This document shows, one piece after another, positions 1,673 to 60,748 of a DNA stretch of 64,000 nt; position 1 is the first letter of the stretch; each line of letters begins with the position of its first letter. The stretch comes from Marsupella aquatica (Eukaryota > Plantae > Marchantiophyta): contig OZ316891.1 in assembly GCA_973895155.1 (NCBI GenBank), forward strand, positions 31,255,112 to 31,319,111. Reading direction: 5' to 3'. Below the pieces are notes generated by a model. It was not told the DNA's origin. It did no database searches and was given only the letters and a program-made list of their open reading frames with translations. Position numbers and translations under genes: made by a program.

Positions 1673-1850
1673 AAAACCGGTGGTGGCATGTGGTTGTGTC
1701 GCAAATGGCCTCTATGCTTGAATTAGGTCACAACTATGTTGTCTACTGAAACTTCTAGGCTAAAACCGGTGGTGGCATGTGGTTGTGTCGCAAATGGCCT
1801 CTATGCTTGAATTAGGTCACAACTATGTTGTCTACTGAAACTTCTAGGCT
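1673..1850. repeat. Perfect tandem duplication, 2 x 89 bp
   Basis: AAAACCGGTGGTGGCATG...CTTCTAGGCT at 1673-1761 and 1762-1850. Confidence 0.92.
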
Positions 1851-4254
1851 TCCCGGTGCTCCATGGTGCTTGTCCATAGGATATGCTAACTGTCATTAAA
1901 TGCAAGAAGTGCTGAGAGCTGAAAGGTTGGGCAGGATGTCATCACTAGCCCACTATCTCCTATTGTTGAAACATTCACTTCTCAACTAGAGAGTGAAGGC
2001 CCAAGGGCCCATCCTTATACTATTGTTGGGCATCCCTCAGGTGGCTTGTCACACAAGCCACTGTCAGTGGTTGGTTGCCATGCCTTGTCATGCAAGCCAA
2101 GGTATTTGTTTGCAATGCAAGCTCATAAGTTGAGTTGTCATGTAAGGCAAAGGTGGACCCCTGTCTTTAAGCTGGTGGGTCCACCCTAGCCTCCAATTCC
2201 TATGGGGCAACAAGCACAAGTTCTTTCTTTCCCAACATTTGAGGCTTTTACCTAGGATGTTTTTAACCTTGGTTTGCTCTCCCTAACCTAGTTGTGTCCA
2301 AGGGGGGCTCACTCTGTGGTGGATTAAATATTTAGGCATGGTGTTTTGGGTAATAAACACCTAAGAATAAGAATTTGTTTTTTAATTACCTTTTACCCCT
2401 ATCATTTTTTGAATCTTCTACAATTATTCCCAAAATTGTTCTTTACCTTATCTTTCTTATATTGTTGGAAATTGGATGAAAAACTCCTAAAGTTTTTTCC
2501 ACAAAAATCTATGTCTTCCACCAAATGCAGATAAAAACCTATATTTTTCCACAAGTGGTAGGTCGCAAAAAAATAAGTGAGGACCCTGAGATTGTGTTGC
2601 TATCTCCAATTCAAGTTACATATGATTCCATTCGATTCACAAGCTTTTTGAGCTTGGTGTTGGTCGCTCACTAGCCGCCAAAAATATTGGTGGCAACACC
2701 TTAATCTGACCATGGCTAGCTTCTAGCTAGGGTATGTAGCTGGCTAACACAAGTATGTGGCTAAGCTGTAGACATGAGTTTGCATGACAAATGTATTTCA
2801 CTGTGAAAGGTGTTGCACCTAGGGAATCACTCTGCAGAATATTGAAATTATGTGCAAACAAATGAAGGTATTCTTTAATCTCATTTGTGTAAATGTCTAT
2901 AATGTAGGATTTCTTAATAAGTAAGGTGATCACTTTTTCGCTAAATTTCTCTAGCTTTCCAATGAAACTAAGATTGACAGATTTTATCAAGTATTAAGTA
3001 GGTTTATTATTTTGTTTTACATTGCAGAGCCCAAGGTGTTCTAAATATTTACATTTCTATCGGTTGGTTTTTCAGATACTTGCAAAAAAAAATTTAAAAA
3101 TACAAACATTTTGATGTAAGAGACTGATATATCACTAACAAGGCATCAAATGGAAATTTGTGTTACTTGGTTGTTTGTTGGTCTAAATTTTACTTTCTAT
3201 ATTTTGATCTTCTGATCTTTTTTGAATATTAGTGATTTTTCTGTCTTCCCTTGCATCAAACATGAACAGTTGTGTTTCTTTTTTGTTGAAGACATCATTG
3301 CTCTAGTTTGTGACCAAACATGATTATGTAGCTCAACATGTTGCTAGGGAGTTTGGAAGGAGCTTCTCATGGGGTCCTTAAATATATAATTATTCATTGT
3401 TGTCAATACAATGTGAGGTCATGCAGTTGTGAGGTCAACCTTTTGTGAGCTTATTGCTTGTAGTTTGAGAACCCCCACAGAGTAAGCTAAGATTCATAGC
3501 AATAAGCCAAGTCCAAAAACTTCACTATCAATTACTCACTGAGATTGTGTCTTAGTGATAAAAACTTAGATTTAGGGTTTTTGTTGGTTGAATCTATTTT
3601 AGGGTTTAGGGTTTTTCCTTAAATGCTGGCATAGTACCATGAGCTTTATTTGTAGGCTCCAATAGATTGATTGCAAGTTCAAAACTCCAGTAAGCAACAA
3701 GAGATGGACAATAAATATATCATGTTATGGGTGTGCTACAAAAATTTGGTACACTTCAATTTCAGCTTGTGGTTTAGAACTGATGAGTAAAGTCAAATCA
3801 AAATTTTCTGTCTTTCACAAAACTTGTAATAGACAGCAGATTTGAATTAATTACAGTAGCGCACCCAATGCTTTGTGGCTTCAAATCTACCATTCTATGG
3901 TGCACTACAAAGCTCTTAGGAACACGCATTTGTTGACATAAAACTGACAGATTTTGATTGAGCCTTGATCAAGCAATATCAAATGAATAGCTTTCTGTGT
4001 TTCATAGAATTGTTGCAATGCCTCGGGGGTTTCACAAACATGTTTGTTGTTTTATTACTTCTAAGGGAAGACTTAGAAATTTTTGTGGATCTAAAAGTAA
4101 ATCTATGGGCCCATACTTTGTCACATATGATGTGCCACTTTCGTGGAAGTGACCCCCTCAAGCTGGGTAGTTGTGCCCATTTTATGTCACATTGCTCAAT
4201 ACCAGTAGTGAGTGCATTTGCACAAAAGATACAGTTAAGAAAAAAGAAGTTACA

Positions 4255-10230: not shown

Positions 10231-13200
10231 ATGGCCATGTTTGGATCAAGCAGCCGTAAGTACCTCCACTTCGGATGTAGTTTTAAGACCTGCACTATTC
10301 TGAATGCTTTCATTCATTTCTATGGATCGGACTCGCTGTTTGATACCTTCCTGGTCGTCTTAGTCCTCTGTCGGTCGTTAGATTTACTCGACTCTCCAAC
10401 GTTTGGCAGCAATACTTCCTGAAGATTGTTGCCGTTATTTCTGTCATATGTGGTATTGGAGTTGTCGTCCTTCCATTATGAAGGTCTTCCTGTTTCACGT
10501 TCTCATTGCCGGAGGAGAAGATATGTCTCGGCCACGCATTGCCACTAGTTTCGTGATATGCATGCTGAACAAGTTCGATCCTAAAGGGTTTTCTGTGTCG
10601 TTTGGCCTCTCTTTTTCGTTAAGTGGTCGTAAATTTCGTTCTACGATCTGCCTTTAGACGGGGGGTGTGAAAGAATCGTATTGACCTGATAGTCCATAGT
10701 TCCAGCATGAGCTGATTCGCTGCTGGTGTTTCCGCGTTGCTTTGCAACAATTCGAAACCAACTGCCGGGTTTTTGACCAACGAGTTTCGAAGCTGCCTGT
10801 TTGCTAGGGTCCATTTTTTTCGTTGTTCGCAGGCAAGGTGTTGCCGTTTAATTCTGTCAGTAGCCTATGGCTCGGTCAGAATGGTTACTAGCAACTATTG
10901 GATGGTTATGATATCGAATTGTCGTCGATACGCCCGGATTTGTCTGAGTATGATGGTGAATGTTGAATTCCTTAGTATTGGAAGACAGCTAGATAGAAAG
11001 TCCATGACTGAGGGAACTTAAGATTAAGATTAAGACGTTGTTTCAGGCTATTCACTTTCATGGTGAATGAATCAGCTGATTTGTGTGTCTTGCTGATTTG
11101 CGTCTTGCTTTTTGACAGCCTTTGGGGCATCTTCGTCCTCCCCCTTTGGAGGGGCTGCCACATCCTCTAATCCCTTTGGGGCACCTGCTCAAAATAATCC
11201 CTTTGGGGCAAATCAATCTGCAAACCCATTTGGTGCCAAACCATTTGGAAGCTCTCCATTTGGTGGACAGGCTGGCGGTTCTTTGTTTGGAAGTGGAACT
11301 GCAACAGGTGTGTTTGGTGCTACACAACAGCCTGCTTTTGGTGGTACAACATCAGCATTTGGTGCGTCATCCACTGCTCCCACCTTTGGCAGTACTGCTA
11401 CACCTTTTGGAAGTGGTACGTTACATTTTGGACCCTCTTTTCAAGTAAATCCCTCAAACCGCTTGAATGTCGTCCGCAAAGCACTGCTGAAAGCGTGGTC
11501 GTTCGTAGCTTTAGCGGTTGCGTCTGTGAGCTGTTTTGATATAAGTTACACCCTGGTTGTCATACGTACCTTAAAAGTTTAATTTCCTTGGATTTGTTTT
11601 TTAGACACCATAGTGGAAAAAGCCCACTTTAGTATGTATACAATTAGGGCTGATTGCCATGCATAAGGTTTCTTATCTGTGGCTGTTGGAATTTCAGGGA
11701 CCCCTGCCTTTGGCCAGAAGCCCGCCACTTCTTTTGGAGGTTTTGGGGCAACTCCAGCGCAAGCAAATCCATTTGGAACTTTTGGACAGACGCAACCTGC
11801 ATTTGGGAGCCAGCCATTTGGATCATCACCCCCTGCGTTTGGCGCCACGTCGACTCCTGCCTTTGGATCAACTGCCACTCCGGCCTTTGGGGGTAGCAGT
11901 ACTCCTGCTTTCGGTGTATCGTCCACGCCTGCATTTGGAGCAACGGCTGCTTCCCCTTTTGGATCGTCTACACCTGCATTTGGCAGCACTTCTGTTTTTG
12001 GCCAATCCACTCCTGCTTTTGGAGCAAGTTCAAGTCCAGCCTTTGGTAGTACGCCATTTGGAAGTGCCACTACTGCTTTTGGCGCTCCTCAAAGCGGACC
12101 CGCTTTTGGTGACTCATCTTCACATTCTTTTATTCCTAGGGTTTGGGCTGTGAAAGTAGTGTTGGCAATGACTTAAGTTATCACGTGCCTGTCCTGGATT
12201 TTGAGGATTTTCATTTTTGTTTATTATGGTGGACAACGTTGACTTATATGTCGGTTGTGTTGGATTTTTATATTTTGGTTGTCCCCAAATAAATGATCTG
12301 AAATGGCTGCCTGTTGGCTTTGTCTGTTAGGTTCAACACCCACAGCATCATTTGGTGGAACAAGTTTCGGGGCATCTTTCGGTGGACAACGGGTTGGAAG
12401 CAGAGTCGTACCTTATGCTGTCACAAATGATACCGATGTTGGAGTTGGTGGGCAGGTTGGGAAGTTCATGTCGATCTCAGCAATGCCCTCTTATAACACC
12501 AAAAGTCCGGAAGAGCTGAGATGGGACGACTATCAGGCCAATGACAAAGGTGAGATTTGTGTTCATTTCTCTGCTTATGTGATTTCATGACTTAAGCTCA
12601 AAACAAGCTGTAATTAAAGTTTTGGACGTGTATAAATATTGGTTGATGATTGTCAAGAATGAAATTAATAAATGAGCGGATTCTTTGCCCAGTGCTCTCT
12701 GCGGATTTGAGTCTGGGAAAGAAGGTAACCAGAAGGGTTGTACTTATATGCGATCTATATTGTTGATTTTTCCTTCTATTTTTAACCTCTGAATTGAACT
12801 TTTATGTAGGTGGTCCAAATCAAGCTGGGCAGCAGCCTGCTACTGGTGGGATCTTTGGCACAACTCCGCAGAGTCCTTTTGGTGGTGCTTCGACTGGGGG
12901 TTTTGGCCAACAGCCACCCGCCCCAAATCCGTTTGCTACGACACCTTCGTCAGGAATATTTGGCGGACAAAAGCCTACAGCTGGGTTCGGAGCAACATCG
13001 ACGCCATCATTCGGGTCGACACCTGCACCAGCATTTGGGCAGAGTCCGTCTCCTTTTGGCCAGACTCAGTCTCCATTTGCCGCACCGTCAACAATGTCCT
13101 CCTTTGGACAAGCCAGCGCTCCTACATTCGGATCAACACCATCTCCATTTGGTGGGAGCACTGGGGCAGGATTTGGTACAAACACATTTGGATCAACACC

Positions 13201-16200
13201 GCTGGGCACTTCGGTCTTTGGGGCTAGTACTCCCGGGTTCACAGGCTCAGCTTTCAGCACCCTGAACACTCCCAGCAATGTCGGTACTTCTTCCCCTTTT
13301 GGGTCCACCAGCTTTTTTGGCCAGTCACAACCAGCGGGAAGCCTGTTTGGGTCACCATTGTCTCAGGGATTTGGGGCATCCACTCCTGCATTTGCAGCTA
13401 CAAGCACGCCAGCTTTTGGAGGGAGTAATATCTTTAACAGTGGCACTCCATCAATATTCTCTCAGACCAAATCTGCTGGTCTAACCCAATCATCTGTAGG
13501 TTCTACAAACTAACCTTTCTGAGTATTATTGCTCGTGACGCTCGTTTTGTACTTTCGATGGACTTCAGCTTCAAATTGACATGTAATTGATTCATGTGCG
13601 AGAAACTCAATCGTAATTCATGTTGCATTTTTTCTTTTGTTACAGTCTCCATCACCATTTTCAGGCTTTGGGCAATCGACACCTGGACAAACATCATTTT
13701 CTTTTCCAAATTTCCAGGCATCACAACCAGGTAGATGAGTCTCTTGCTCAGCACGCTTGCCCTTGGGACTGCGTTTTCGTGTTCCTTCAGGTAGTTGTTT
13801 ATATTCAGATGTACAGATACGAATTTGTTTCTCTGAAACTGTACATTTCGTCGTATATGTAGGTTGGCAGTAGTTTAGGGATATTTCTGCAATCACTTGC
13901 TCATGAAGCCGAGGTTAAGGTTGAGTTGTTGACTCTTTTTTTTTGAGGATAGGGACTGTGAGAAACTCTAACTGGTGGTCTGGTGTGTCGACGTGACAAC
14001 AGCGGGAAACAGCATGTTCAATGGTTCTTCGTTCGGCAATACATTTGCACAACCACAGTAAGCTTATTTTGGGGTTTACTCCACCTATCGCAACAAAGGA
14101 CATGCGAGGATGTAGTACAACTGATGTTGAACTCATGCAGTCTCGTGGAGCTCCTCCAGAATCACGTGCTAGTTTTTCTTAGTGTTTACTAACGAAAGGT
14201 TTTTGAAGTAATTCTAGAAAGCCACGACATATCGATGTAAGAAATGTAAAATGTAGATACATAGATCATCCTGCAGCTAACAAAGTTCAGTTGACGTATT
14301 GACATCCGTATTCACCTCTTGTGTCTGTTCCAGGTCTACAAATAATCTCATGATGGCAATGCCCCAGCCTGTCGCCAACCCATTTGGGACTCTGCCAGCA
14401 ATGCCCCAAATGTCAATCGGCCGAAGCGCTGGGTCAAGCCCTTCTGTGCAGTACGGAATTTCCAGCATGCCGGTATGTGCGCATGCTGATCAATGTCTCG
14501 ACCATTTCATCCATATTACCATGGATTACTGTTCTAACCAAAATTTTGTTCTTACAGGTGTCTGACAAACCCACTCAAGTGCGGACAACTTCGTTATTGA
14601 CTCCAAGACATATCACTCAAAGGTCTAAAATTCGGATGCATGCACGGAGGTATAACCCTAAAAAGGACACCCCAAAGGTTAGTGCCGTCACTTCAATAAG
14701 TGACTCTTAAAAGTCATCACTATAAGTTTTGGTTCGTTGTCTTCCGTTACCATTTCCTTCCAGGATTTTCCACGAAGATGATGTTCATGTTTTAGATGTG
14801 AGTCTTTTGGAAGACTGGCAAAACGATATGTTTTGTTTTGAATATCAGTGCTCGTTTACATGCCTGCACAGTCATCTCCTGGCATGAGGATGCTACCACT
14901 GGATGAAGCCGTTAGAACTGATTTTCGTCTCTGGTTTCGTGGCAGGTTTCATTCTTCAGTGATGGGGAAGAAACACCGAGTACACCTAAAGCAGATGTCT
15001 TATTTGTACCTCGAGAGAACCCTCGTGCACTTTTCATTCGGCACACAGAGCAATCACCAATTTTACCACCCATGAAAGGAACTCCAGACCCTAGGGATAC
15101 TGCCACCCCCGTGCAGCGAAACGGTACGTCATAATGCCGTGCAATGATCCGTCTGAGGAAGGGTGCCAGTCAGGATAATCAGTTGTGAGTAATTATTGCT
15201 TGTATCTAGTTCTAGTAGGGGCCTACGCCTGAACGAACCAAAACGAATTTGGTCATAGTCTACCTACCGTCAGAATGTTATTTGTTTAGCGCCCATGAAT
15301 ATGGAGACTAAGAAGATCACATACTGTACAGAACGACGAAATAGATGCTGGTTGCAGGCACCTTCGCTGCCAATGAGAACAAATATCAGCACTGCAATCT
15401 GTCACAGTTCGATAATGGACTGTAGTCTCTAGTCACCCGTGGGAAGTGCCATGGAACGAGAGACATGGAACTTCGTTGATCAAGCATTTTAAGCCAGATT
15501 CCTTTTAACCTTCACGAAAGAGCAACTCCACAACGCTTCTCAGATGCGAGTCGTAGAGTTACTTAGTTGGATTATTACTTCATTCGACTAATTCCCGCTT
15601 TGTCCGTTTTGCTATATTTCCCAAGGGAACATGGATCATAATAATTAAGTATTTATTTATCAAGCAAAAGTAACTATGATGATGTCAATTGTTAAGTGAT
15701 GCGTGTACTGTCAACTTACATTTTTAAATCTTATGTTCCGTCGTTTGCAGGGGCTGAAGTGGAGAACCATGAGCCTTCCACCAGTCCCGTAACATCTCCG
15801 GGCAATTCAGAAAGTAAGCTGCAGTCTGGTCCCTCTAATGCAGTAGTTTCAAATTCACGAGGTTGCTATTGTAGGTGGCGGTAAACGTATTGGAAGTAGT
15901 GTCTGACTCGTTTGTAATTTTGGCCATCCTGAATACAAATCAATGCAAACTACGTTCTCTGTTCGTTTTGGGCTTGTAATGACTTTTCATCTTTGTTCGA
16001 AGTCATTTGTTTTATCCGTTCTCATTTCTGGTTGTAATGATGATCATGTAATTCTTGCTACTCGTGATAGATATTTAACTTGATTTTGTTGTATTCATCA
16101 GGTCCGATGGAGAGCTGGCCAAGTCCTGAGTTGGCAGATGGCAACATTCAGACGACCCCTCTGTCATCAAAGGCTGTTGATAAAAGTCCTCCTCTGAAGT

Positions 16201-19200
16201 CAGTATCTAAAATGAATGGGGTTCGGGAGGAACACAATCACCGGGGCAATGGATATATCTCCATCACTGGTCATAGAGCTGGAGAAGCTGCGATCGCCTA
16301 CGAGCATGGAGCAGATATTGAGGCACTCATGCCAAAACTTCGTCATTCAGATTACTTCACCGAGCCAAGGATCCAAGAGCTCGCTGCTAAAGAGCGTGCA
16401 GAACCTGGGTTTTGTCGTAGGGTACATGACTTCGTTGTGGGGAGAAGAGGATATGGGTCGGTAAAGTTCTTGGGTGACACAGATGTGAGGCGCCTTGACC
16501 TGGAGGGCATAATTCAGTTCAATAAGTGTGAGGTTCTTGTCTACATGGATGAGAGCAAAAAGCCCTCTACTGGACAAGGATTGAACAAGCCTGCCGAGGT
16601 CACTCTTCTTAATGTGAAAAGTATTGACAAGAAGACAGGTCAGCATTTCAGTGAGGGGCCTGAGGTAGAAAAGTTTGAAAAGCGGTTGAAGAGAAAGACT
16701 GAGGAGCAGGGTGCAGAGTTCATTTCTTTCGATGCAGTAAAAGGAGAGTGGAAATTTCGAGTAAAACATTTCAGCAGATACGGTTTGGATGATTCAGATG
16801 AAGAAGAAGTTCTCCAATCAGTTCCAGCAAAGGCAATAGTCCTGCCAGGCACGGATATGATGGAAGGAGTGGAAGGTGATATGTTTGAAAGTCCGGCAGA
16901 TCTTCGGCATAAATCTCTTGAGATTGGTGAGGAAACTGTGGACATCGATGACGAGGAAGTAGTACGGTCAGGGGAAGTTTATAGCAGTGCACCTCAAGCT
17001 GCATTGCCCCATTCTCTACCTTCTCAACTAAGGTTGGATCCTCTAAAAATGCAGCAAATGAGAGCGTTATTTTTTCCTTTGGGAGAAGAAGCTGAAGATC
17101 CCTCTGCAATAGGCTTTTCTGGAAAGCCACGGTCTCCTCATTCAGGTCATACTGAAGCCTCTGCTAAAAATTATGTCAAAGTTCAGAAAGATTTTAATGA
17201 GGAAGGAGTGCGCTCTGCATGGCCCCATCGCTCACCCTGGAAAGGAGGTCCCACAAAGCAGATGAGGCTGACCCCTCATACTTCGTGGAAGCCATCTGTA
17301 CCATATTCACCAGTTCAGACTGAAAGTCAAAGCAAACACAAATTCCAAGTATCTGACCTAAATGTCTCTCCATCTGAGAATGGAACGATGTTAGCTTTGC
17401 AGAATGGTGAAGGGGTTGGATCTAGAAAGGAGAGAGATTGTGGCTTCGCTATTGAGTTTGATGAAAAATCTGAGTCAGGAACTGCTGGGCGGTATGATCA
17501 CATTGTAGACGCCGGCTTATTTTTTGGAAGATCCTTCCGTGTGGGATGGGGCCCGAATGGTGTACTTGTGCATAGTGGAGCACGTACTGGTGCTGATACC
17601 CAGAACGTTGTCTTAAGCTCACGTTTGCACATCGAAAAGGTCGCTCTGGACAGCACTGTCAGAGACGAAAGCAGCGAAGTTGTGGAAGAACTTATTGAGC
17701 TGCAATTTGTGTATCCGCTGAAACTTCATATGTCTATGAGCGAAGTAGTGGAATCAGTGAAGCAACCGACGTCTGGTGATTTAAAGTTGCGGAATTTGGT
17801 CTGCAATCGGTCTGATTTGTCAGTCATATGTGATGAATATGAAGACTTGATTCATAAGCAACATGCAGTCAAAGGAATACCAGATGAATACCAGCTCACC
17901 CTGCGCCACCAGATCATCGTGTGGCGGCTCTTGGATGTCCTATTTTCTAACATTCTACCAGCGCAAGAATCGAAAGAAGAGAAGCGAGATCCCGGTGACT
18001 TCAGCAAATTTGGCACCCATGGTGCTTCTGTGGATCCCGTAGAGCTTCTCCTGCGAAGGGCTGAATTCAGTCGTTGGTTGCAAACCAGTGTGGGTCAGCT
18101 GGTTCAAAATGATCTCCAGCTTGTGGAGGACGAGGATGCGGATGAAATGAAGGAGATTTTTATTCTACTGACAGGCAGAAAAGTGGATGCTGCTGTTATG
18201 AAGGCTACTTTCAGAGGAGATATTCGATTGGCTTGTTTGCTTAGCCAGGCTGGCGCATCAGTCAAAAGCCGGTCTGACATTGCCACACAACTCTCTGTGT
18301 GGGGATCTGAAGGGCTTGACTATTCTCTTATAGAGAACGAGCGGATGTCCGTGTACAAATTACTAGCAGGAGACATTTGGGGAGCCCTCGAGAACCATTA
18401 CATAGACTGGAAGCGGTTTCTGGGACTCATTATGTGGTACCAGTTGGGCCCGGACACAGATCTGTCAGTGATTATTAATACATATCAGCAAGTCATCACT
18501 GAAAACAAAAATTTCTTACCGATACCAATGTATGTTGAGGAAGGAGCCAACAGCCATCCTGGTCATGTTGACACTTACGACACTTCTTATTATCTGATGT
18601 TGTTGCATGCATCCAAAGAGAAAGAGATGAAGGTGGATGATCTGAAGAAGATGTTCTCTTCTGCTTCCACAACATTCGATAAATTGGATCATAGAATGGC
18701 TTGGCATCAACAGGGATTCCTACAAGCTGTGGGTGTTTTGGAACCCTTGCAGCTGCATGAGCTGCATATGAACTTTGTGGCACAGCTCCTAGCTGTTGGA
18801 CTATGCCACTGGGCAATATATGTTGTACTTCACATGCCAGTGTTGGTAGAGTGTCCTGGCTTCCATGCAAAAGTGATAAGAGAGATACTTAGTCAGTACT
18901 GCGAGACATGGAGCAAATCACAACTGCAGCAGGATTTCTTGGAGCAGGAACTTGGGATTCCTACCAAGTGGTTGCACGAAGCACTGGTTGGTTGCACTTT
19001 CATTATTCTCCTCATCATATGATTTATCTTGGTTGCATCCCATTGTTGTGAGTTGTTGCATTGGTTACTTCCATGAGGACTAGAACAAACGTTTCAGAAG
19101 ATTCTGTCACCCAGACTTTCTACCACGGAAGGTCAACCTATCTTAGGGAGGTGCCAAAAACTTGTAAAACGGGGGAGGCATGAACGTCATAAGTAAAAAA

Positions 19201-28974: not shown

Positions 28975-29300
28975 AGCAGACCTTCTGGTAATCTGATATA
29001 GAGGCCTGTAACAGGGTTTTTTTCAGTGGCGAAAATCGGTCCAATTTCCCCAAAAATCTTTCGCTACTTTTGGCTAAAATTTGCTATTATTTCTCTATCT
29101 CATAAGCCAGTGTTCCACCAAATCACAGACCCCATTAGTCACAGCAGACCTTCTGGTATAGAGGCCTGTAACAGGGTTTTTTTTAAGTGGCGAAAATAGG
29201 CCAAATGTCCCAAAAAATCTTTCTTTATTTTTGGCTAAAATTTGCTATTATTTCTCTATCTCAGCCAGTGTTCCACCAAATCACAGATCCCATCAGCCAA
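28975..29300. repeat. Tandem duplication of ~165 bp with CCCATTAGCC sub-repeats
   Basis: CAGCAGACCTTCTGGTA...GAGGCCTGTAACAGGG...CCACCAAATCACAGA occurs at ~28975 and ~29143. Confidence 0.8.
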
Positions 29301-30121
29301 ATTTAACAGTCAGCCTTAACTTCACAGACCCCATTAGCCAAAATCTAACAGTCAGCCTTAACTCCAGGGAGATCTGACGGTCAGAAAATTAATTAAATAG
29401 TGAATCTTTTGAGCATCTTCTCGTTCACAAACCATACATTCGCCACTCTCGCGAAAAAGTAAAATCCTTAAAAAATAGGCTGCCCTGTAATAAGCTCGAA
29501 CATACACTGTCAGCGAGATATAGAGGGAGGGCAACACCGCAACTCCGCCACTGTATATTAATAGTCGCCAGGTTTAGCGGGGCGCCGTCAGTCATTATGG
29601 GGCCAGGTTTGGAGGGGCGACCTGAAACAGCGGAGAAGGAAGCAGAGCATTGGTACACAGTACACAGTACACAGATTGCACCAGACTAGGTACTAGGCAC
29701 TAGGTACTAGAGAGTACTGTAGTAAAAAGGTAGAGGCAGAGTCGAACCGAAGTATCGACGCACCCGAAGGTCGTCAGCACTCAGCAGGCTGGCGATGGCG
29801 GAACACGAGGTACTGTACAGGATGCGGCTTTGACTCACGTGCAGATTGTTCTTTTGTGCTACAGCTCTGTTCTTTCCTCGCGGCACCGTAGCATTAGGAA
29901 TGGCTGGCTCTCCTTTGGCAGCCTGCCCGTTTGCGAAATGTCATGGACATTCCGTTTGCGTGGGTCTGACTACGAAATTCGTAGCTCGACGAGACCAGCA
30001 TTTGGATTTGGGACTCATCAGTCAGCCAACAATAGCTGGAGTTGTTGGTTTGGACTCAATGGCTGGCTGGCTTGCTGTTGGAAATGAACCACACTCGAAC
30101 GAAGATGGATACAGCCACAAA

Positions 30122-30196
30122 GGGCCGGCCTGTAGCTCAGTGGTAGAGTACTATGATGTACACGGGAGGTCCTAGGTTCAATTCCTAGCCGGTCCA
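30122..30196 (+). ncRNA. tRNA-like unit inside the 5' LTR (Pol III A/B boxes; not a functional tRNA)
   Basis: A box TAGCTCAGTGG, B box GGTTCAATTCC, T-stem CTAGG/CCTAG, acceptor-like GGGCCGG/CCGGTCC+A. The anticodon arm does not pair. Confidence 0.8.
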
Positions 30197-30320
30197 TGCT
30201 GTTGAAAGTTCCAACATGGTATCAGAGCTAAAGAATAGAAATTTCCCTTGTAGCGAGTGCGGCTCAAGGGTGGGTGTTGGAAATGAACCACACTCAAACG
30301 AAGATGGATACAGCCACAAA

Positions 30321-30391
30321 GGGCCTGTAGCTCAGTGGTAGAGCACTACCATGTACACGGGAGGTCCTAGGTTCAATTCCTAGCCGGTCCA
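30321..30391 (+). ncRNA. tRNA-like unit inside the 3' LTR (Pol III A/B boxes; not a functional tRNA)
   Basis: GGGCCTG-TA-GCTC-AGTGGTA-GAGC-...-GGTC-CTAGG-TTCAATT-CCTAG-CCGGTCC-A. D and T stems are intact, the acceptor stem has G3:U70 and one mismatch, and the anticodon stem is degenerate. Confidence 0.8.
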
Positions 30392-31279
30392 TGCTGATGA
30401 AAGTTCCAACACTTGCACAGTACAGTGCAGTGCAGTACAGATCATTTCTATTGCGCCATGATTGAGAGAGAGATAAGTGACTGGTTGAGTAATCGAATTG
30501 CGAGTAATTGTGCTGGTCCTGGCATGGGATGGATGATGAGATAGATGCTAAGGATCTTCTCGGGGTTGGGATTCGATAGGTGATGGGGAATGTGAGTGAT
30601 TGACTGCTTTCCGTAAAGAAAAGGGTCAGGATAATTTCTATTGTCGAGAATTGGAGGTGAATTGTCTTATGTCCAGGTCTGTATTATTATCTTACTGGCT
30701 TGTAGTTGATGTCTTGATTCGCTTTATCGCTGCCGAGCTTTCTGTGAGCTTTCTGTGTGCTTTCTCCACAGCCCGGCCTAATATTTTATGGGCTCGGGTA
30801 GCTAGGCTGGGCTGCCCTGGCACACTCTCGGTTCTGATTGCGTGTGAGGTCGACGGTGCTGATGGTAGCGAGGTCCGCCGGGTGGTGGATTGAAATGCTG
30901 GCGAGCTAGCCTTGTTGCTCTTGAAGGAGGGGAAGGGAGGGGAGGAACTGGAGCGGAGGCGACCAGGAGAGAAGGGGAGGAGGTGCGCGATCTGAGGAGA
31001 GATTGTTTGTTGGACCGAATTTGATGTGGATCGGTAGATTGTGGAGGGGAGAAAAGGTTGAGGAAGGTGAAGGAAGTAAGGCAAGCGTTGGAGGAGGGAG
31101 AGAGGGAGAGAGGAGAACAGGAGAAGCTCCTGATGTGAAGCAGCGAGCCGGAGACCGGAGGAGTTGTTGATGCAGCACTACGAAGGTTTTGGTCAGGAGC
31201 GGAACAAGAAGAAGGAGGATTTCCTGGTGGTTGTCTGATGTGAAGTGCAGGAGCAGGAGCAGGAGCAGCGCAGAGGAGG

Positions 31280-49170: not shown

Positions 49171-49793
49171 GTACTATCTTTTGAAAAAAACCTGAGATCT
49201 GTCAGCCAGGTTATACTTAGACAGTGTAGGCAACCTACAAATGAACGTTTGTCAATGTGCCCGAAGAGTCTATCCTAAAAGCAAACCAAGGATAACGTGT
49301 CAATGACTGACTGATAGCCAATTAGGATTTTGAATGTGTCTTTTCTATGGTTACGGTGAAATACCGGAGTATGAGCGAGCTTATTGATGCTTGAGCTACC
49401 CTGGATATGTCTTTCACAATGAATTCTAAGATCATTGCTTTCTTGACAGATAGTTGTTACTCTCGATTGAAAAGGAGTCATATAACTTTTGCAAGTTATC
49501 TATATCAAAGATCACAGCAGAGCAAGGGAGACAAGAAAATACATCTTTGGACGGAGGTAGGCATGCATCCTAGCCGTAGGACCCAACAGACTTAGCGGGC
49601 TGCTATCTATTTCTGAACATTTCATTTTAAAAAGTCCTAACGAAATGAAACAAATTGACTATACCTCGCGGAGTCTCCTGATTTTGTCCTGGTGTCAATC
49701 AGGCTTTCCAGAAATGACCGTGGGTTGTGGTGCTGACAGAGGAAGCCCAGAGCACCTGAGTTTAATCATAAGATTACAAGGAAAGCACTTTGG

Positions 49794-52034
49794 GTGAATG
49801 AATGGTCAACTCCAGCATGGCTTAAGGCGAGGACGCATTTGATTACCCAAGGCAGATTGCAATCTCGTGTTAGTTATGGCACGAGAGATTGGTCTCAAGT
49901 CACTGCACAAGGGAATGGCAGTAGGCACATGCATGATGCTGGTATCGTAAGTGAAGCAATTGCTGTTTTGAAGGATCGTCTACAACGAGGCATTCCTGTA
50001 GACTCGTACACATATGTCAAAGTTCTCCAAATGTGCTCGAAACGGAAAGACCTTTTAGCGACCACGGAGGTGCATGACCACATCATCCAGAGTGGAATGG
50101 ATAAGAATGTTTATGTGGCGGTAACCCTCCTGAATGTGTATATCAAATGTGGGGCATTGTTGAAAGCACGTCGAGTTTTTTATCAACTTGAGACGAAGAG
50201 TGTTATTACTTGGAACGCTATGATAGGAGCATATGCTAACAGTGATCATGCTGAATCTGTACCGGAACTTTTCAATCAAATGCGCCAAGAACAAGTGCAG
50301 CCTGATGAGATCACATATCTGAGCATCCTGAAGGCATGTGACAAGCCATTAGCTCTAAAATGGGGACAGGAAGTTCATGTGTATATTCGAGATGCTGGCT
50401 TTGAATCAGATGTGCGTGTAGGGTCTGCCCTTCTACAGATGTATGCAAAATGCGGGTGCATCACCGAGGCAAGGAACGTTTTTGAAAGGTTGAGCAATCG
50501 AAATGTCGTCACATGGACAGTTATGATTCGAGCATATGCAGAACTTGGTCATGGTGTGGAAGCATATCAACTGTTTCTCCAAATGAGACGGGAAGGCTTC
50601 GAACCAAATGCAATCACCTATGCGAGCATCCTGAATCCATCTGCAAGTGCGGGGGCTTTGGAGTGGGTGAAGGAGGTTCATGGCCATGCTAGCAAAGCGG
50701 GACTTGAGTCTGATTTGCGTGTGGGCAATGCACTTGTTCACATGTATGCAAAGAGTGGCAGTATAGATGACGCCCGACTGGTTTTCGACAGAATGAAAAA
50801 ACGCCATGTAGTCACATGGAATGTAATGATTGGTGGACTTGCGCAACATGGATGTGGACATGAAGCATATAGACTATTTCTCCAGATGAGACGCGAAGGC
50901 TTCGAACCAGATGCATTCACTTATGCTAGTATCCTGAATGCATCTGCAAGTGCGGGGGCTTTGGAGTGGGTGAAGGAGGTTCATGGCCATGCTAGAAAAG
51001 CCGGACTGGAGTCAGATTTGCGTGTGGGCAACGCACTTGTTCACATGTATGCACAGAGTGGCAGTATAGATGACGCCCGACTTATTTTTGACAGAATGGA
51101 GAAGCGTGATGTAGTCACATGGACTATAATGATCGGTGGACTTGCCCAACATGGATGTGGGAATGAAGCGCTGGAACTATTCAGAAAAATGACCGCAGAC
51201 GGTGTGAAGCCCGACAGTTATTCAATCGTGGCAGTGTTGTCAGCCTGTTGTCACGGAGGCCTTGTTGATGATGGTCTTAAACTCTTTTCAGATTTGACGC
51301 AAGAGTATGCCATCGAGCCTCACATGGTGCATTATACGTGCATGGTGGATCTTCTTGGCAGGGCTGGACACTTGGAGGAAGCAAAGCTCTTCATTAGTGA
51401 CATGCCAGTTGAACCAGATGCAGTAACTTGGAAAGCCTTGCTTGGTGCTTGTAGAACTTACGGTAATGTGGAGTTGGGCGAACTTGCTGCCAAAGAGCTT
51501 CTCAAGTTGGAACCCAACGATTCGTCCGCATATGTGCTCCTCTCCAACATCTATGCTGCAGCTGGTAAGTGGGAGAAGGTGTCATTGGTGCGCACCATGA
51601 TGCAGAACAGAGGTGTTCGGAAGGAGCCAGGACGTAGCTGGATTGAAATTGATAAGAAGATCCATAAATTCGTTGTAGCGGATAGATCTCACCCAGAAGC
51701 GAAGGCGATATATACTGAGCTCTTTAAATTGACTGACAAACTGAAGGCTGAAGGCTACATTCCGGATACCCGACTTGTGTTGCATGATATCAAAGAGGAA
51801 GATAAAGAACTCGCTCTTTGCTCTCATAGTGAGAAGTTGGCTATATCTTACGGACTTATGCACATACCTCGGGGAAAACCAATTCGTATATGGAAGAACC
51901 TTCGGGTGTGTTCAGATTGCCATACCGCAACCAAGTATATCTCTAAGGTGACTGGACGCGACATTGTAGCCAGGGATGCCAATCGCTTTCACCATTTCAA
52001 AGATGGCATATGTTCTTGTGGCGATTACTGGTGA
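49794..52034 (+). CDS. PLS-class pentatricopeptide repeat protein with E1/E2 and DYW cytidine deaminase domain (organellar C-to-U RNA editing factor)
   Basis: 746-aa open frame with about 14 P/L/S repeats, E1/E2, PG box (PGRSWIE), HSEKLA, CSDCH and terminal SCGDYW. The true 5' end is uncertain: the track starts at GTG, the first in-frame ATG is near 49929, and upstream exons may exist around 47490-48230. Confidence 0.93.
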   Translation: MNEWSTPAWLKARTHLITQGRLQSRVSYGTRDWSQVTAQGNGSRHMHDAGIVSEAIAVLKDRLQRGIPVDSYTYVKVLQMCSKRKDLLATTEVHDHIIQSGMDKNVYVAVTLLNVYIKCGALLKARRVFYQLETKSVITWNAMIGAYANSDHAESVPELFNQMRQEQVQPDEITYLSILKACDKPLALKWGQEVHVYIRDAGFESDVRVGSALLQMYAKCGCITEARNVFERLSNRNVVTWTVMIRAYAELGHGVEAYQLFLQMRREGFEPNAITYASILNPSASAGALEWVKEVHGHASKAGLESDLRVGNALVHMYAKSGSIDDARLVFDRMKKRHVVTWNVMIGGLAQHGCGHEAYRLFLQMRREGFEPDAFTYASILNASASAGALEWVKEVHGHARKAGLESDLRVGNALVHMYAQSGSIDDARLIFDRMEKRDVVTWTIMIGGLAQHGCGNEALELFRKMTADGVKPDSYSIVAVLSACCHGGLVDDGLKLFSDLTQEYAIEPHMVHYTCMVDLLGRAGHLEEAKLFISDMPVEPDAVTWKALLGACRTYGNVELGELAAKELLKLEPNDSSAYVLLSNIYAAAGKWEKVSLVRTMMQNRGVRKEPGRSWIEIDKKIHKFVVADRSHPEAKAIYTELFKLTDKLKAEGYIPDTRLVLHDIKEEDKELALCSHSEKLAISYGLMHIPRGKPIRIWKNLRVCSDCHTATKYISKVTGRDIVARDANRFHHFKDGICSCGDYW

Positions 52035-52222: not shown

Positions 52223-55147
52223 TTGCCCAAAGAAATGACTGATGTTTGATGCTTCAATAGACAGATTGGTCAAACGAAATTTAATCCAACGCAAATTCAC
52301 ACTATATCCATGTCAAATAAAGCACAATCAAAGATTCTGAGTTGCCGTCTGGACAGGGGACACATGAGAGACGAGCTGGCCCTTTTGACTTGTATCAACT
52401 CATACGGTGCCATAAATTTCGTACAAATGTCGAGAAGTGGCAGGAGTATTTGTGACAGGCTTCCTGTGTTGTTCGGTGTGGCCACTGGTCCTAATTTTGA
52501 GTGGGAAGAACTGAGTCTCTTCCTAGAACTGTAGTAATTTAAATTCTAGATTATGAATTAACTCAACGTCATGATACTATTCGAGGTCCAGTATTTTTGG
52601 CCGAACTTAGTTCAGTGTTTTGATGGGGGCCCTACAATGGCCCCAAATCATACTGTGCAGGAATTGACAACAATGGATCGTCACAAACCAGTATTGTTCA
52701 GCATAATGTGATCTTGTGGTTGCGGCCTGATATTATTTACAATTTGATATTCAAAGCATTTCTTCATGAATAACACAAGTACAATACTCTAATCTGGACA
52801 AATTGAATAGGAGATATGGGTTCATTTTAATAGTAGTAAACAGGATTGAGGAATCCATAAGAAAAAAATTGGTCAGTCTACAGTTCATCTAGAGTGAACC
52901 CTTTTGGTAGCAGAAAATGTAGATAGTGGAATAGTTTTTATGAGTAGGAATGGGCATGGGGAGTTGTTACTATGTGTATTGAATGTTTGTGAAGGCTACT
53001 TTTGTACAATTCCCATTAAATTGTTTCAAATTGATAGTAGCCATTGTGTGCCTACTTTCAGAGTGTGCCATGTGTGGTGTTTTCAGAGTACTTTCTGTGC
53101 ACATGGCCTAATCTTTCAGAGTGTGCTCTAGCAGGAAATTTTGAAACGAAATGGATGAAGTTGTCTAATTAGTCACTATAGGGGAGTCATAATGAACTTT
53201 ATAGATATGTAGGATGTACTTTTTAAAGAGCTCGCTGAGCACAATTGTGTGCGCTCTCGATTGGACTCAAAGGGTACAAGATATAGGTATAGGTGAAGTC
53301 CTCATACATAGACTTAAATTCTAGTCTAGCCCAATGGTTAGGACACTGGCATGGGAACAGGAGGTCCCCAGATAAGAGGACAGGGCTTGGTAGATTTAAC
53401 AAATAGGACATTACGATAAAAGCTCCCGCTACCAAACCAGTAAAATCAGAAATGCAATTCAAAAATCTAAGGGGGTGATGAAACTTGTGAAAGTCAAATT
53501 TTCTCTACTAAATTAAAGTGGATCGATGCTAATTTCAAAATGTGAGAAAAACCTGAGAGCAAAGCCTCATCAGATAAATCAAAACCTTAATTACTACTGG
53601 AAAAATTGGGAGAATGACACTTGTATGTGTAACAGTTCTCTATGGCGTCCAAAACAACAATATTTCTTGTTTGCTTCATGCACACCAGCAACTCAGCACT
53701 GCAAAGTAACTTCTCAAAATACAGATTAGTCTACTTATGCCACAACGTCTATTGCTCTAAGGACGACGGACCAAAACAAGCACCAGGCTCCCTAAGCTCA
53801 AAATAAGTACCAGATGTCCTACACAACCCAAACATATAATAGATTCAAGTAAAAGTAGGAGTTATCCTTTGCGAGGTTGACGACTATAGCCCTTTATAAC
53901 TGACTTCTCTACCCTTAACTTGTCGTTCAGCAGTGTCATGTGGGCCTATCCAAGGAGAATATAGGAAAGAAAAATCTTTCCAATTTGCAAACACTGATTA
54001 AAGCTGCAACATGGAGTTTGACTTTGTAGCACTCAAAGCTAAGTAGTTTTTAGGGGTGACCTATGGGACCTATCTTATGTGTAGAAAGGAACAAGGAAAA
54101 CTTGCACGATTGCAAAGAAGAATAAAAGCTACAGTACCGGTCAACTTTTCTAATGTAAATGAGCTTTTAGCATCATTTTGTTAAAATATCTGGGGGCTGG
54201 GTCCTCTAGTTAGGCAACAGTGCCTCAAGCAACGACAAGTGGAAAGAAACAAATTCTCATGAATGTTCTAGTAATGGCAAGTGGCAACAAGTGAAGAAAA
54301 AGTCCATAGGTGCATAACCTATAGCAGTATAGCACCCTACATGGGAGGAGAGGCACTTGCTTTCTTTCAAAACATACCTTAGTAATCAATAACTACCGCA
54401 TCATGCATAAATGAACTTGAAGCCAGCATGGAAATCCAAGATAAACTTTTGCAACCCAGATGGACTCCAACAAAACCCTCCTTTCTGCTCACATATTACA
54501 CACTACTAAGATGAGTGAGATGTGGGAAGAAAGTAAGACATGCAGATTCGGAAAATTTTAGGTCTTTCAGTTCTCCATGAAATCGCACAATATAAGGCTC
54601 ACAAGAAAGATCTTTCCAAGAAGTTTGTAACAAACCCAAAAAATCCAGATCTCATTAGATATTGAGGGAGATGAATGTCAAAAGTTAGTTGCTCAAAACT
54701 TTTTGGGAGCACAAAGTGTGGAGAGTGATTAATGGAGTATTCTTCGGAACACTAGGGTAGAGATCTTAGATTGCTTGGAAAGATCTCTAGTTTTCATGCC
54801 CCAAGGATCTTACACTGGTTGGAATTGATCTCTAGTATTCATGAAAAATTTGGTCAAGGTCTCCCTCAGGGCATGGAAGTGATACATCATGTACAACAAA
54901 ATACATGGTCTTAAATTATTGTGAGGAAGACTCTTAAAGAGCTTGGTGGAAATAAGTGTTTTAAAATTTAAAACAGTTTAATATGTGAGTGTCATCATAT
55001 AATTGGTGTCATACAAATATATTTAATGAAAGTTATCGAGGGGGTCAAAACTAACCCAAACCTTTGCACATGATGTACAACCCACCAGTATTGACCCCCC
55101 AAAAAGTCCATTGTAGAATAAGTTTCAAAGGAAATTGCAAAGCATAA

Positions 55148-55509
55148 GGGCCACTTTACAAGACGGGCGCGGCAATTTAGTTCCTCTTTTTTCATGATCG
55201 AATCGATCACAACCGTTGTTTCAGCCTGCCCGGGCGCTCCTTGCTTTAGAAGACTGGCGCGGCAAGTTGAGCTGCGGGAATAACCGAACCTGCATTCTGG
55301 TATGGATCAGCTCTGGCCAGCCGGCTTGGGACTCTCATCCGGGCGCTAGACTATTGGACCTCTGGAGGTGCGAAAATGGGCAGCCCGCTTCCTCCTAGGA
55401 TTCCTGCCTTGGATTGGTCTAGAGTCCTACCGTACCACTAAGAGTTGGGCTCTGTTACAGCCCTGGTAGAAAGCACTCAAATTGCCGCGCCCGTCTTGTA
55501 AAGTGGCCC
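55148..55509. mobile_element. Tourist-like (PIF/Harbinger) MITE, 362 bp
   Basis: Perfect 31-bp TIRs GGGCCACTTTACAAGACGGGCGCGGCAATTT (55148-55178) and its reverse complement (55479-55509), flanked by TAA on both sides (55145-55147, 55510-55512). GC-richer than its flanks. Confidence 0.9.
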
Positions 55510-57323
55510 TAAGGTAGGTGCACTGCTTCTTTCCAGTAGTGCTTGATGGGACCCCTGGCAGAAAGTTTTTACTTTATAAAACCCTTCGAAGGTATTGTAA
55601 CCAACTAGGATTCCTTTTGACAGTTTTGGCTCAGAAGTTCTTGTAGCAGTTCCTATAATGAGGTTTTTTTTGTTTTGTTTTGTTTTAAATGAAACCCGCA
55701 AAAACCCACGGGAAGGGGGGCCCAACAGGGCACCTATAATGAGGTTTTGTTTGATATTGTGACCGAAAATAGCTACTCTAAACTTTATGGTGAACCGTGC
55801 CTAAACCACGAACTGCAAGGTCGGAATCAAGGTCCAACCTTGAACAGTCGATACATGGTTGGGGGAATGACAAAATAGTGGCTGCCACCGCCCAAATTGC
55901 GATGTAACTTAAGTGAAGACAATATGGTTAATATCTTTTGGTTTAAATTTTTAACATATCACGATTTTCACTAGGTTTACTGTCATGCAAGCTACCCAAG
56001 GTGTTTCTGATGTATTTTTTGGTGCAACTGTCCATCAATGCGTGCATAGCAGAAGGGAGTTTGCATCCAACAACATGAGGGACGTGATACAACTCGACAA
56101 GGTGCAATAGTTGTTTATGATGTAAAGACAGGTGGAATATCAAGACTTCTAATTCCATGTGTGGATCAAATGTTCATGACTATTCTTCTGTCAAAACATG
56201 ATCTCAAGCTCACAATGTAACATATTTCTCTTGACAATTTGTCTTACTTTATACTAGGCAGAAACCTCAGGATGCAAAGCCATCTTATAGTGGCAACTTT
56301 TTGCTCACTGAAAAATACGTTTAAATGATCATGAAGAAGGGAAATTCCAGATGGCATGGAAATCCACGACAAAACAATGATAGTCCCTAAAAATGATCTG
56401 AAGACATAAACCATAGTCTTCACCAAACGATAAGAAGAAATTGCATTGGGCGACTCTGACCACAAACAGAGCAACTTGGTAAACCATAGAACTAAACCGC
56501 CCATGATGTGTAGGCTGAGGCCAAAAATTGTGTAATTCCTCCATTTAAAAGAACAATGCAAGGCTCATTAAGAGAGGTCCTAACAGGTAACAAAACTTTC
56601 ATAGGGGTCCTAGTAGTTAACAAAACCTTCATAGGGGCCTATCACATAAAAAAGTCCTGTCAGTGTCCATCAAGCATATACCACTTCTCTTGGACATGTA
56701 ACCAGTTCTCTTCTTTTGGGAATTTTGGGAAACCTGTGGAAAGCAACAAGTCAACAAACTTAGACAGTGTCTTAAGTTCCCAAATAGTGTCACTCAGAAA
56801 ATCCAATTGTAACAGGAGAATCCATGGTGAGCCTGAGTCACCACATGACATGGAAATCTCACAGCTCAAAGCTGAGTTTAGTATATTGCTATTGATTGAC
56901 TGACACACTCTAAACAACATGTCTCCAAGATGACAAACTGCAGGTCCCTTTTTTGCCTTGAAACTCATTTTGAATTCCATCCAAAAGACAGCATACTTGC
57001 AGGTCCCTTTGCACATAGTCTTATTGGAACTAAATCAAATTCCTCATTGGGACCCTCCCTGGGCTTCTTTCCCCCTCCTGTATAGGGTTTCTTGTAGCCA
57101 GTTTGATGTTTTTTGTTTTCTTGTTCTTTGGTATATTATATACACTCATTATTGTAGTTCTCTAATTCTAAATTCCTGTCATCCTAGTCACCTAGTGCAA
57201 CCTTACGTTTTGATAGACTTTAGGTATATCCCAGCGAAACCTTTCCAATGGAGGTGTCATCCCAGCTCCTAGCTGGCAAATCATAAAAATGGAAGAAAAA
57301 GAGATGTCCATATGTACACGTTT

Positions 57324-58088: not shown

Positions 58089-60748
58089 ACACGTTTCATA
58101 CGTCCGTACGTATTTCTTTTGCCCTTTTGTCCTAGCCATACTTCCAAGCTTCATCCTTATCCTTAATGTCTATGTGGCGTGCATATAGTCTGAGATTACG
58201 AGACAGACATGGTTGGGTCGTTGGATTGTTCGCTTGCAGTTTGTGGACTACAGTACCTATGCCTATTCCGGTACTGTAGTAAGTTGTAACCTGGTCCACA
58301 CAAAATTTAGGGCTTGGTGAGAGTTACATATAAGGTAATAAGGGTCTGGGCAAGGGTTATTAGGCAGGCAGGGGCTTTTAGTTTGTAACCTTGGGACCAG
58401 AAAACTAATAAAATATAAACCAATAAAATCTAACCAACTAACCAACAGTAGCCAGGAAGCTTCTATGAGCATTTTTGGGGCAGATTTCACACTCAAAGCC
58501 CATACCATCTTTGTATCATCATGTAAATGCTACATGGGAAAAGTAGCTGATGGCCAATTGCCACGCAATAAATTATGCAAATACCAAAGACATCCAGAAA
58601 TGGTTACACATGGGTAACCTGTATTTTGTACTGCACTTAGTGGACCAATCAAAGAACAAATACATGATTGTGTATTGGAAAAATAGGAAAAGCAAAAAAC
58701 TTACTTAATATAAAGCAGTAAGACAAATCAAATGCAATCTTTTGTGTACAAGTGCCTTGCGTATAGTGGAGCCAAATCATACAGTAGCTAATATTATAGC
58801 AAACATAAGAAGCGTTTATTGATCAATATAATAGACGATTACACAAAGTAGTTTATTCTCTAATCCAATTGAATCATGAAATACAAGGGATCTGACTTGT
58901 GTAACCTAACAACACATAAGAGTAAGTACATGAACTATTTCCAATGCACTTATTGGGTAATGCAATGCTACCCATGTGTATAATTATTGGAAATTGATAT
59001 GTCATGCACTTATATATAATATATTAGGGCATCAAACCTCAAAATTTGATGGACCTTAACTTAATGTTAAATTTATGGGCAGGAAAAATGATGAAATATC
59101 AAAGTCATTATCCTCTAACTTTTTGCCATAAGAATTGGTCATGTGCCTTGACCATATCACTTTGGCCAGTGGAAAGAAATAGACAACTCTACCAAAACAC
59201 TATGGCCGTCTGTTTATGGAACTCTTGAGTTTTTGAGATGCCCTGATGCATGCCATGGATAAGTGCCAGTTTATTAAGTTTGTGTGTGGAACCTGCACTA
59301 CAAAACCAAGTAACAAATACTGCCAACTTACTATCTAACAACCATTGCCACTCCCCCGGCAGCCGAAGGTTCTCAGCAGATACGGAGGGCGACGATAAGT
59401 TAGCACCGGTACTGTAAAATAAGAGGCCCAACGTTCCATCCGACCGAGCCTACTACTACTACTACTAGTCAGCTACGTAGGGCAGCTGCCAGCCGGGCAA
59501 CGTACGGTACAAAGGAAGTACAGTAGTCAGTGCGGCGTTGCGGGCAACGGGCAGGAAGGGCAGGAGGGGCAGGATGGTGCGCGAGGAGGAGGGCGGAGCA
59601 GAGCGACTGACCGAGGACTCGAGGAGGGAGAGCCGTTCTTGTAGCGGAAAGCGACAAGCGGGTGGAACTGTTCATCGCAAGAAAGTGGTGTAAAGCGGAA
59701 CGCGCAATAATACGATAGGACGGTCTCGCGGACGCGCTTCGTCTGTTAGAACGAGCGGAGTGCGGTTGGGAAGGGAAAATTGTTGTCCGCGTGCCGTCAA
59801 CGAAAATTTGTCGGCTTACGGTCGACGCGTGGGACGACTAACGCGGTGGAGCAGCATCAGCATCGACACGATTATTACACAGCTATATGCTTTGGGCGAA
59901 GCGCGCCGCGGTCCTGAGATTATTGTCGAACAAGAAGGAAGGGAGGTCGAAAGGGTGTCCCCTGTGGTGCTGTTTCTTCGCCAAGAACGAAAGCAAGCAA
60001 CAAAGAAACTGAGGAAATTTGTTGACGCTTTCTGTGTGTAGCAAAGCAAGTTCGTTTACAGTTTTTGTAGTCTGTATTGCGCCGTGCGCGGTCGCAGATC
60101 TATCGATCGAAAGAAAAGTAGGATTGGTCGAAGAGAGCGTGGATAGCAGACTCAAGCAGATTCATTGAGAGAACGAAGATCGATCGAAGGAGGACAGGAA
60201 AAGAGTGTCGATTAACGAGAAGTGGATCGGTCCCAAGAAGGGCGGAGGAAGTCCCGATCTAGGCGAGGTGGATCGATCGAACGAGAGGCAGATCGGTGAT
60301 CGAGTGAAGGAAAATTGTTCGAGGAAGAGAGGGTCAAAGGAAGGAAGCGAAGATCCTGATCGATCGTACAGAGAGAAGAATCGAGGTGGGAAGGTGGCAA
60401 GGTATCACCGTTTCGGATGTCTGAGACGCGGAGGCAGTGAGGGCAATATCCCAATGTCAACCAGATCCCTGGTGAGAGAGAAAAGTGGAAGGTCTCTTTT
60501 GCGCCGAGAACGCACTTGTGTAGGGATCAGAGCGCCTGATTGTGTCTTCGATCCGTTGTGAAGTGCAGTCTGCGTCTAGGACGTTCTTCATGACCACCTC
60601 GTGTTGTCAACTGAGAGATTAGAAGGATTGTTAGTTCGGCAACGTGCCATTCTACAGGATTCTGTTACGGTGGTACGCTGGATATCGACTCCGGTGTACA
60701 GTTTGGTGGTGGTTGTAACGGGGTGGTAGAAGGCGCTGGAGATCCAAG

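Follow-up and report, generated by a model that had tools for sequence, protein, structure and literature searches.

Helenus elements (TRIMp3; Kojima 2024) are TRIMs of under about 1 kb with tRNA-derived sequence in their LTRs, and have been described from fungi, animals and one plant, with Selaginella moellendorffii as the sole plant host listed (PMC10886601). They range in length from 311 to 1,263 bp, the fungal and plant families are flanked by a 5-bp duplication, most of the tRNA modules are non-functional according to Kojima, and SINE insertion is the origin proposed for the class (PMC10886601). Pol III activity is stated in the same work to be unvalidated for any Helenus, and Copia is proposed as the autonomous partner of the fungal families (PMC10886601). 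The sole validated case of such a mechanism is Cassandra, a non-coding TRIM of 565–860 bp that has in each LTR a Pol III promoter derived from a small RNA; it carries 5S rRNA sequence and terminates inside the 3′ LTR (PMC10886601). Here we describe an element from a 64-kb stretch of liverwort DNA (the window) that is a new family of this known class and likely the first Helenus from a liverwort. The literature searched yielded no report of a bryophyte Helenus; Repbase, Dfam and subscription papers lay outside the search, so an unpublished entry is possible. None appears in the accessible parts of three further papers (PMC13570524, PMC12859917 and PMC13182070).

The features of the element are as follows.

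30071–30075, plus strand: left TSD copy, CTTGC; runs X3 and X5 have a single copy where the element is absent
30076–30411: the element proper, 336 bp, between the two CTTGC copies
30076–30216, plus strand: 5′ LTR, 141 bp, TG..CA, with an 8-bp terminal inverted repeat
30076–30121, plus strand: predicted U3, comprising the 5′ LTR as far as the module, with CAA at 30118–30120
30122–30196, plus strand: tRNA-like module, 5′ LTR copy, opening with a 4-nt duplication; A box 30133–30143, B box 30175–30185
30217–30228, plus strand: primer-binding site, 12 nt, adjoining the 5′ LTR
30245–30270, plus strand: predicted 9-bp interior hairpin overlapping the purine tract, present in both the MFE and the centroid fold
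30266–30274, plus strand: short polypurine tract, purines at 8/9 positions, adjoining the 3′ LTR
30275–30411, plus strand: 3′ LTR, 137 bp
30321–30391, plus strand: tRNA-like module, 3′ LTR copy, 71 nt in length; A box 30328–30338, B box 30370–30380
30412–30416, plus strand: right TSD copy, CTTGC

The original prediction, of a 336-bp element with two LTRs, a primer-binding site, a polypurine tract and an exact TSD, holds in every structural statement. The LTRs differ from each other by 5 substitutions and one 4-nt indel (93.6% alike; Jukes–Cantor distance 0.037), and the 8-bp inverted repeat at their ends is perfect. The 58-bp interior opens with TGGTATCAGAGC directly at the LTR end and closes with the 9-nt purine tract, and the hairpin predicted within it is a possible packaging signal. 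No protein is encoded, the longest ATG frame being 41 codons, and Pfam detected no retroelement domains in the 8 window ORFs scanned. The primer site, which we take to be the complement of the 3′ end of the initiator Met tRNA, occurs only once in the window; its complementarity to the element's own module is confined to the CCA-pairing start and one further base. An identical 5-mer at the same spacing as the TSD copies is found at 75 of 63,654 window positions (0.12%), and the combined pattern of module, LTR end and primer site has a single occurrence in the window and none in 100 shuffles. With TG..CA LTRs, a total length below 1,000 bp, a primer site and purine tract, a 5-bp TSD and evidence of mobility, the element has the features by which TRIMs are recognized. 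No long reading frame covers it, and a probable plus-strand host gene begins roughly 1 kb downstream; neither a second copy nor a second primer site was found in the 64 kb.

Each LTR was also predicted to hold a tRNA-like module with intact A and B boxes and D and T stems around a decayed anticodon arm, a description that Rfam and stem pairing bear out. RF00005 scores 46.1 bits at 30321–30391 and 36.5 bits at 30126–30196 (gathering score, 29). In the 3′ module the acceptor stem is paired at 6/7 positions, the D stem at 4/4 and the T stem at 5/5, and the anticodon arm is 16 nt with no pairing; ARAGORN calls only this copy (tRNA-???), with an unreadable anticodon. Both LTRs carry the TRGCY and YGG of the A box and the GGTTC of the B box given in the Helenus definition. 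The module occupies half of the LTR, of which only 46 nt lie upstream. Its folding energy is not exceptional (z-scores of −0.5 to −1.4, and +0.6 in one register) and, lacking significance, was rejected as evidence for a cloverleaf. Among the seven Rfam matches at E up to 10 there is no 5S rRNA. One of the weak matches is to mascRNA/menRNA (RF01684; 21.8 bits, E 0.18, under the gathering score of 42.5), a processing product of a vertebrate lncRNA, which likewise resembles tRNA in its acceptor and T arm but has no proper anticodon arm; the resemblance is one of analogy only.

The module is likely not a working tRNA. That it is a functional tRNA gene spread by the element would accord with the score of the 3′ copy, which exceeds the Rfam gathering score, but it differs from such genes in lacking a 5-bp anticodon stem with a 7-nt loop and a downstream T run: the 16-nt anticodon arm is unpaired, there is no terminator, and most Helenus modules are themselves described as non-functional (PMC10886601). 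We regard this reading as very improbable. tRNA-derived SINEs lack LTRs and consist of one head, body and tail, the tail being A-rich or a repeat, with duplications of variable length; the element differs from them in carrying its module twice, once in each LTR on either side of a primer site and a purine tract. It differs from Cassandra in having a tRNA-type module, a length of 336 bp and no T4.

The suggested assignment to Helenus fits in the tRNA module, the A and B boxes, the TSD, the length and the lack of complementarity between module and primer site. The accompanying label of a SINE/TRIM hybrid belongs to the published hypothesis of Helenus origin (PMC10886601) and is not something observed in the element. 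Ordinary plant TRIMs were sampled by a control scan of metagenome contigs for a similar primer site and purine tract, which returned 33 loci (L001–L033), 20 of them distinct; most look like ordinary seed-plant TRIMs and two (L001 and L022) like chance matches. A scan of the metagenome for module, LTR end and primer site together gave 0 loci. The element resembles the ordinary TRIMs in size, primer site, short purine tract and 5-bp duplication but differs from the 20 distinct control loci, which are without tRNA module or B box: TATA-like motifs occur in 12/20, T4 runs in 19/20 and a B box in 0/20. BLAST of the element against the control loci gave matches at the primer site or LTR ends only. 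Rfam gave 0 matches in the 20 of the 33 loci scanned, and the 40 scattered calls that ARAGORN made in 26 of the 33 at a lowered threshold were therefore treated as noise. Loci L002–L033 include several very small plant TRIM families of about 290–360 bp, some of them in tandem (L003/L026, L007 and L031/L033). For bryophytes, the portion available of Gao et al. 2016 records that no TRIM was found in Physcomitrella (PMC4717578).

Five public sequencing runs contain part of the stretch, two from organism A and three from organism B, and four of these (X1, X2, X3 and X5) were examined. They bear out the expectation of a mobile, multicopy element with an empty orthologous site. Two studies supply the empty site: in X3 from one and X5 from the other, a contig of organism B passes directly from 30075 to 30417, missing out 341 bases (the element and one CTTGC), with 183–255 aligned bases on the shorter side of the joint. 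The depth at the joint in X3 is 65, equal to that of the flanks; five letters lie inside the joint and in X3 are identical to a further unit of the pentamer repeat beginning at 30417. The element is also repeated. Summed depth in X1 is 819–3,735 over the element against 14–17 on unique flanks, and is raised over the element in X2, X3 and X5 as well; summed depth is not copy number, and some of the contigs matched to the module at the 80% level may be genuine tRNA genes or SINEs. A second full-length copy on another X1 contig (record 4) matches 30076–30411 and is exact at both boundaries, with 47 mismatches and 8 gaps, and contigs depart from the LTR end at 30216 into mutually unlike sequence in X1 (17 contigs; agreement 0.40) and X5 (9 contigs; agreement 0.46). 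X1 may be the window's own source and gives no independent support for the filled site. Because the site is empty in organism B and the element is repeated in all four runs, we conclude that the family is mobile.

A local tandem duplication of a tRNA pseudogene, with no mobility at all, would account for there being one copy only in the 64-kb window; it leaves aside the TG..CA ends, the primer site, the purine tract and the 5-bp TSD, and is refuted by the precise empty site in two runs together with a second full-length copy that has the same boundaries. We give it next to no weight.

Flanking sequence in organism B differs from the window at 113/2,473 positions in X3 (4.6%) and at 23/731 in X5 (3.1%), which together with the LTR–LTR distance of 0.037 is consistent with an insertion around or after the split between A and B. 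Copies about 85% alike, with matching extents, are seen in both organisms (X1 records 4 and 5; X3 records 17 and 20; X2 record 14) and are possibly older insertions common to the two; the family may therefore have been active both before and after the split. In X2, contigs (records 12 and 13) follow the LTR and primer site, lose the match and regain it at the module (joints 30233/30234 to 30319); they possibly represent sister families that differ in their interiors, or may lead to a longer partner. Several contig joints re-enter the match at 30315–30321, the start of the module, which suggests that the module is better kept than the U3 and the interior.

Modules were compared by eye with printed consensus sequences over the 55 positions outside the anticodon arm. 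On the consensus as printed, the 3′ module is identical to that of Helenus-1_SMo, from Selaginella, at 48/55 positions. The two elements are further alike in size (325 against 336 bp here), in the 5-bp TSD, in the first four and last eight letters of the LTR, in a Met-type primer site adjoining the LTR and in the placement of the module near the LTR 3′ end. They differ in that the U3, the anticodon arm, the trailer and the interior (85 against 58 bp here) could not be aligned by eye, and in that the Selaginella consensus has TTTT behind the module whereas the liverwort element has none. Helenus-1_AmAr, from the agaricomycete Amylostereum areolatum, matches the 3′ module at 47/55 positions, again by eye, with 2 extra D-loop bases, and shares the 5-bp duplication; in its printed form it differs in a longer LTR (209 bp), a long trailer, A3–U70 in place of G3:U70 and primer-site letters that diverge after the first five. 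The Selaginella and Amylostereum modules, for their part, are identical at 53/55 positions outside the anticodon arm, and both printed interiors are 85 bp. Two control families picked as similar-looking, Helenus-2_CCin and Helenus-4_CVi, agree with the 3′ module at 38 and 39 of the 55 positions of their consensus sequences, by the same visual count. Closer Helenus relatives than the printed families compared may exist.

Four of the seven differences between the liverwort and Selaginella modules form two double compensatory changes, at acceptor pair 5:68 and T-stem pair 51:63; of the remaining three, one keeps the 50:64 pair (from a G–U type to A–U), another disrupts pair 6:67 and the last falls in the T loop. 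The anticodon arms of the liverwort, Selaginella and Amylostereum modules, as printed, differ freely and cannot be aligned. Both plant modules, on the Selaginella side as printed, have G3:U70 with A73, the alanine identity set, a point in favour of the reading of the module as a functional tRNA; G3:U70 is, however, not constant in the group, since the printed Amylostereum module has A3–U70, and the case for alanine identity is weakened accordingly. The text of PMC10886601 contains the word 'acceptor' 0 times and 'horizontal' in a reference only, and discusses neither acceptor stems nor transfer. The likeness of the modules suggests either one cross-kingdom lineage or repeated captures of a single parent tRNA or SINE, possibly with selection on the fold; across kingdoms, and from three sequences compared by eye, it is a lead and not a result.

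A tentative possibility is that the module is kept also as a folded tRNA mimic of acceptor, D and T arms, through which host tRNA-handling proteins would export the RNA, pack it into the particle of the partner or fix its 3′ end, the last by cutting after position 73 in the manner of RNase Z. Five of the seven differences from the printed Selaginella module outside the anticodon arm keep pairing, as judged by eye, and these pairs lie outside the A and B boxes; the freely varying anticodon arm in the three modules, as far as the printed sequences go, and the lack of a T4 terminator point the same way. Against this stand the small basis of three sequences compared by eye, the broken 6:67 pair in the 3′ LTR copy, the unremarkable folding z-scores and the consideration that efficient RNase P/Z cutting would sever the 5′ module or remove the 3′ repeat and so destroy the template; inheritance from one parent tRNA could, moreover, leave the stems paired without present selection. 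Such mimicry can be compatible with Pol III transcription of the element. We think it doubtful that the liverwort, Selaginella and Amylostereum elements form one old cross-kingdom lineage, through transfer between a fungus and an early land plant or retention since the bryophyte–tracheophyte split, with the module selected as a tRNA mimic at the RNA level. If this were true, tRNA-processing enzymes would, with no T4 present, define the genomic RNA end of the liverwort family, which would then be an LTR retroelement with RNA ends set by Pol III and the tRNA-maturation machinery.

The original prediction also argued from a lack of TTTT that Pol III could read through the element. The observation is correct, as the element holds no TTTT and the first lies at 30784, but the argument is weak, because such a lack is expected by chance: 57.6% of mononucleotide and 78.5% of dinucleotide shuffles of the presumed transcript (n = 2,000 each) are also without TTTT, although only 596 of 2,550 window tiles and 1/20 control loci are. 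With shuffles so commonly free of T4, its absence was rejected as evidence for Pol III. Nor is it a requirement for the Helenus class, since TTTT stands just behind the module in the Selaginella consensus (6 nt behind) and in 26/26 complete rust-fungal consensus LTRs compared, in the part of Data S1 used (PMC10886601 Data S1). Within that part, most fungal Helenus LTRs have exactly four T shortly behind the module, a feature that the text of the paper does not mention, and TTTT is missing in fish, coelacanth, sturgeon, some bivalve and a few fungal families (PMC10886601 Data S1). The four-T run of the published families may mark the R/U5 border by acting as a leaky terminator. On these consensus sequences the liverwort element is within the Helenus range for T4, yet unlike its closest published relative.

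No TATA-like or AATAA-like motif was found in the element's LTRs. Four bases before the module the LTR has CAA, which in the accessible parts of two papers is a known plant Pol III upstream motif (PMC13437025, PMC13578239); the CAA at 30118–30120 lends weak support, because such motifs are described in the available part of one of them as rarer in non-angiosperm tRNA genes (PMC13437025). A rival account makes the element an ordinary Pol II TRIM that once received a tRNA-derived SINE or a tRNA pseudogene in its LTR, the module now being a passenger and transcription coming from neighbouring promoters or from an unrecognized promoter in the LTR. The position of this copy, with a probable host gene starting roughly 1 kb downstream, would suit such a history, as would the proposed origin of Helenus by SINE insertion (PMC10886601). 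Half of the LTR, however, is module, the mere 46 nt that remain upstream of it lack a TATA-like motif, both boxes are intact, the same module recurs in distant hosts, and the contig joints that re-enter at 30315–30321 suggest that it is better kept than the U3 and interior. We consider a passenger module improbable.

We propose instead that the element is a Helenus-type TRIM, probably transcribed by Pol III from the 5′ LTR module and probably copied by an autonomous partner, itself probably of Copia type; we hold this account with reasonable, though not full, confidence. TFIIIC would bind the A and B boxes and Pol III would start a few bases upstream of the module, at about 30118–30122, with the RNA running through the primer site, the interior, the purine tract and the 3′ LTR. 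Because the LTR has no T4, the 3′ end of the RNA would fall at the next T run in the flank (30784 for the copy studied) or result from trimming behind the module. Host initiator-Met tRNA would anneal to the 12-nt primer site, and the resulting strong-stop DNA, comprising the module and the 20-nt trailer, would transfer to the same sequence in the 3′ LTR, a step to which a read-through tail should be no obstacle. The purine tract would then prime the second strand, and the partner's integrase would insert the DNA, yielding the 5-bp duplication. A primer from the 3′ end of Met tRNA with a 5-bp duplication fits most Copia lineages and most chromoviruses, in the section available of a published survey (PMC6317226); these two features do not separate the candidate partners, and Copia would be favoured by analogy with the fungal Helenus only.

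The element extends Helenus to a second plant lineage, likely as the first bryophyte record in the literature searched, and provides a clean pair of insertion and empty site. Helenus elements inflate tRNA gene counts in annotation, as in rust fungi (PMC10886601), and place Pol III promoters near genes. As liverworts have a tractable model in Marchantia, the family could supply the missing test of Helenus Pol III transcription. The closeness of the plant and agaricomycete modules raises the question of transfer between fungus and plant or of constraint at the RNA level.

The window holds other features of note. A 316-bp element at 29172–29487 has short inverted ends (CAGGG..CCCTG) and is bordered by TAA left and right; we take it to be like a Tourist/PIF-Harbinger MITE. 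A second, partial copy lies at about 29013–29141. The summed depth of the 316-bp element is high in all four runs, and organism B omits 29181–29512. At 55147–55510, two perfect 32-bp inverted repeats separated by about 300 bp are possibly another MITE. Host genes on the plus strand include an intronless PPR protein with E, E+ and DYW domains, of the organellar RNA-editing factor type (49737–52034), and a Nup98–Nup96 gene at about 11097–19022, in which FG-repeat exons precede a 983-codon frame with autopeptidase and Nup96 domains; the best cluster in a NUP96 search, from which fused forms fell outside the length range, was from Physcomitrium (55%). A 627-codon plus-strand frame at 60719–62602, whose matches indicate that the host is likely a liverwort nearer to Jungermanniopsida, has a weak PNRC motif; homologues were found in liverworts only (7 matches), three from Calypogeia fissa (63–69%), one unnamed, two from Riccia (38–49%) and one from Marchantia (38%).
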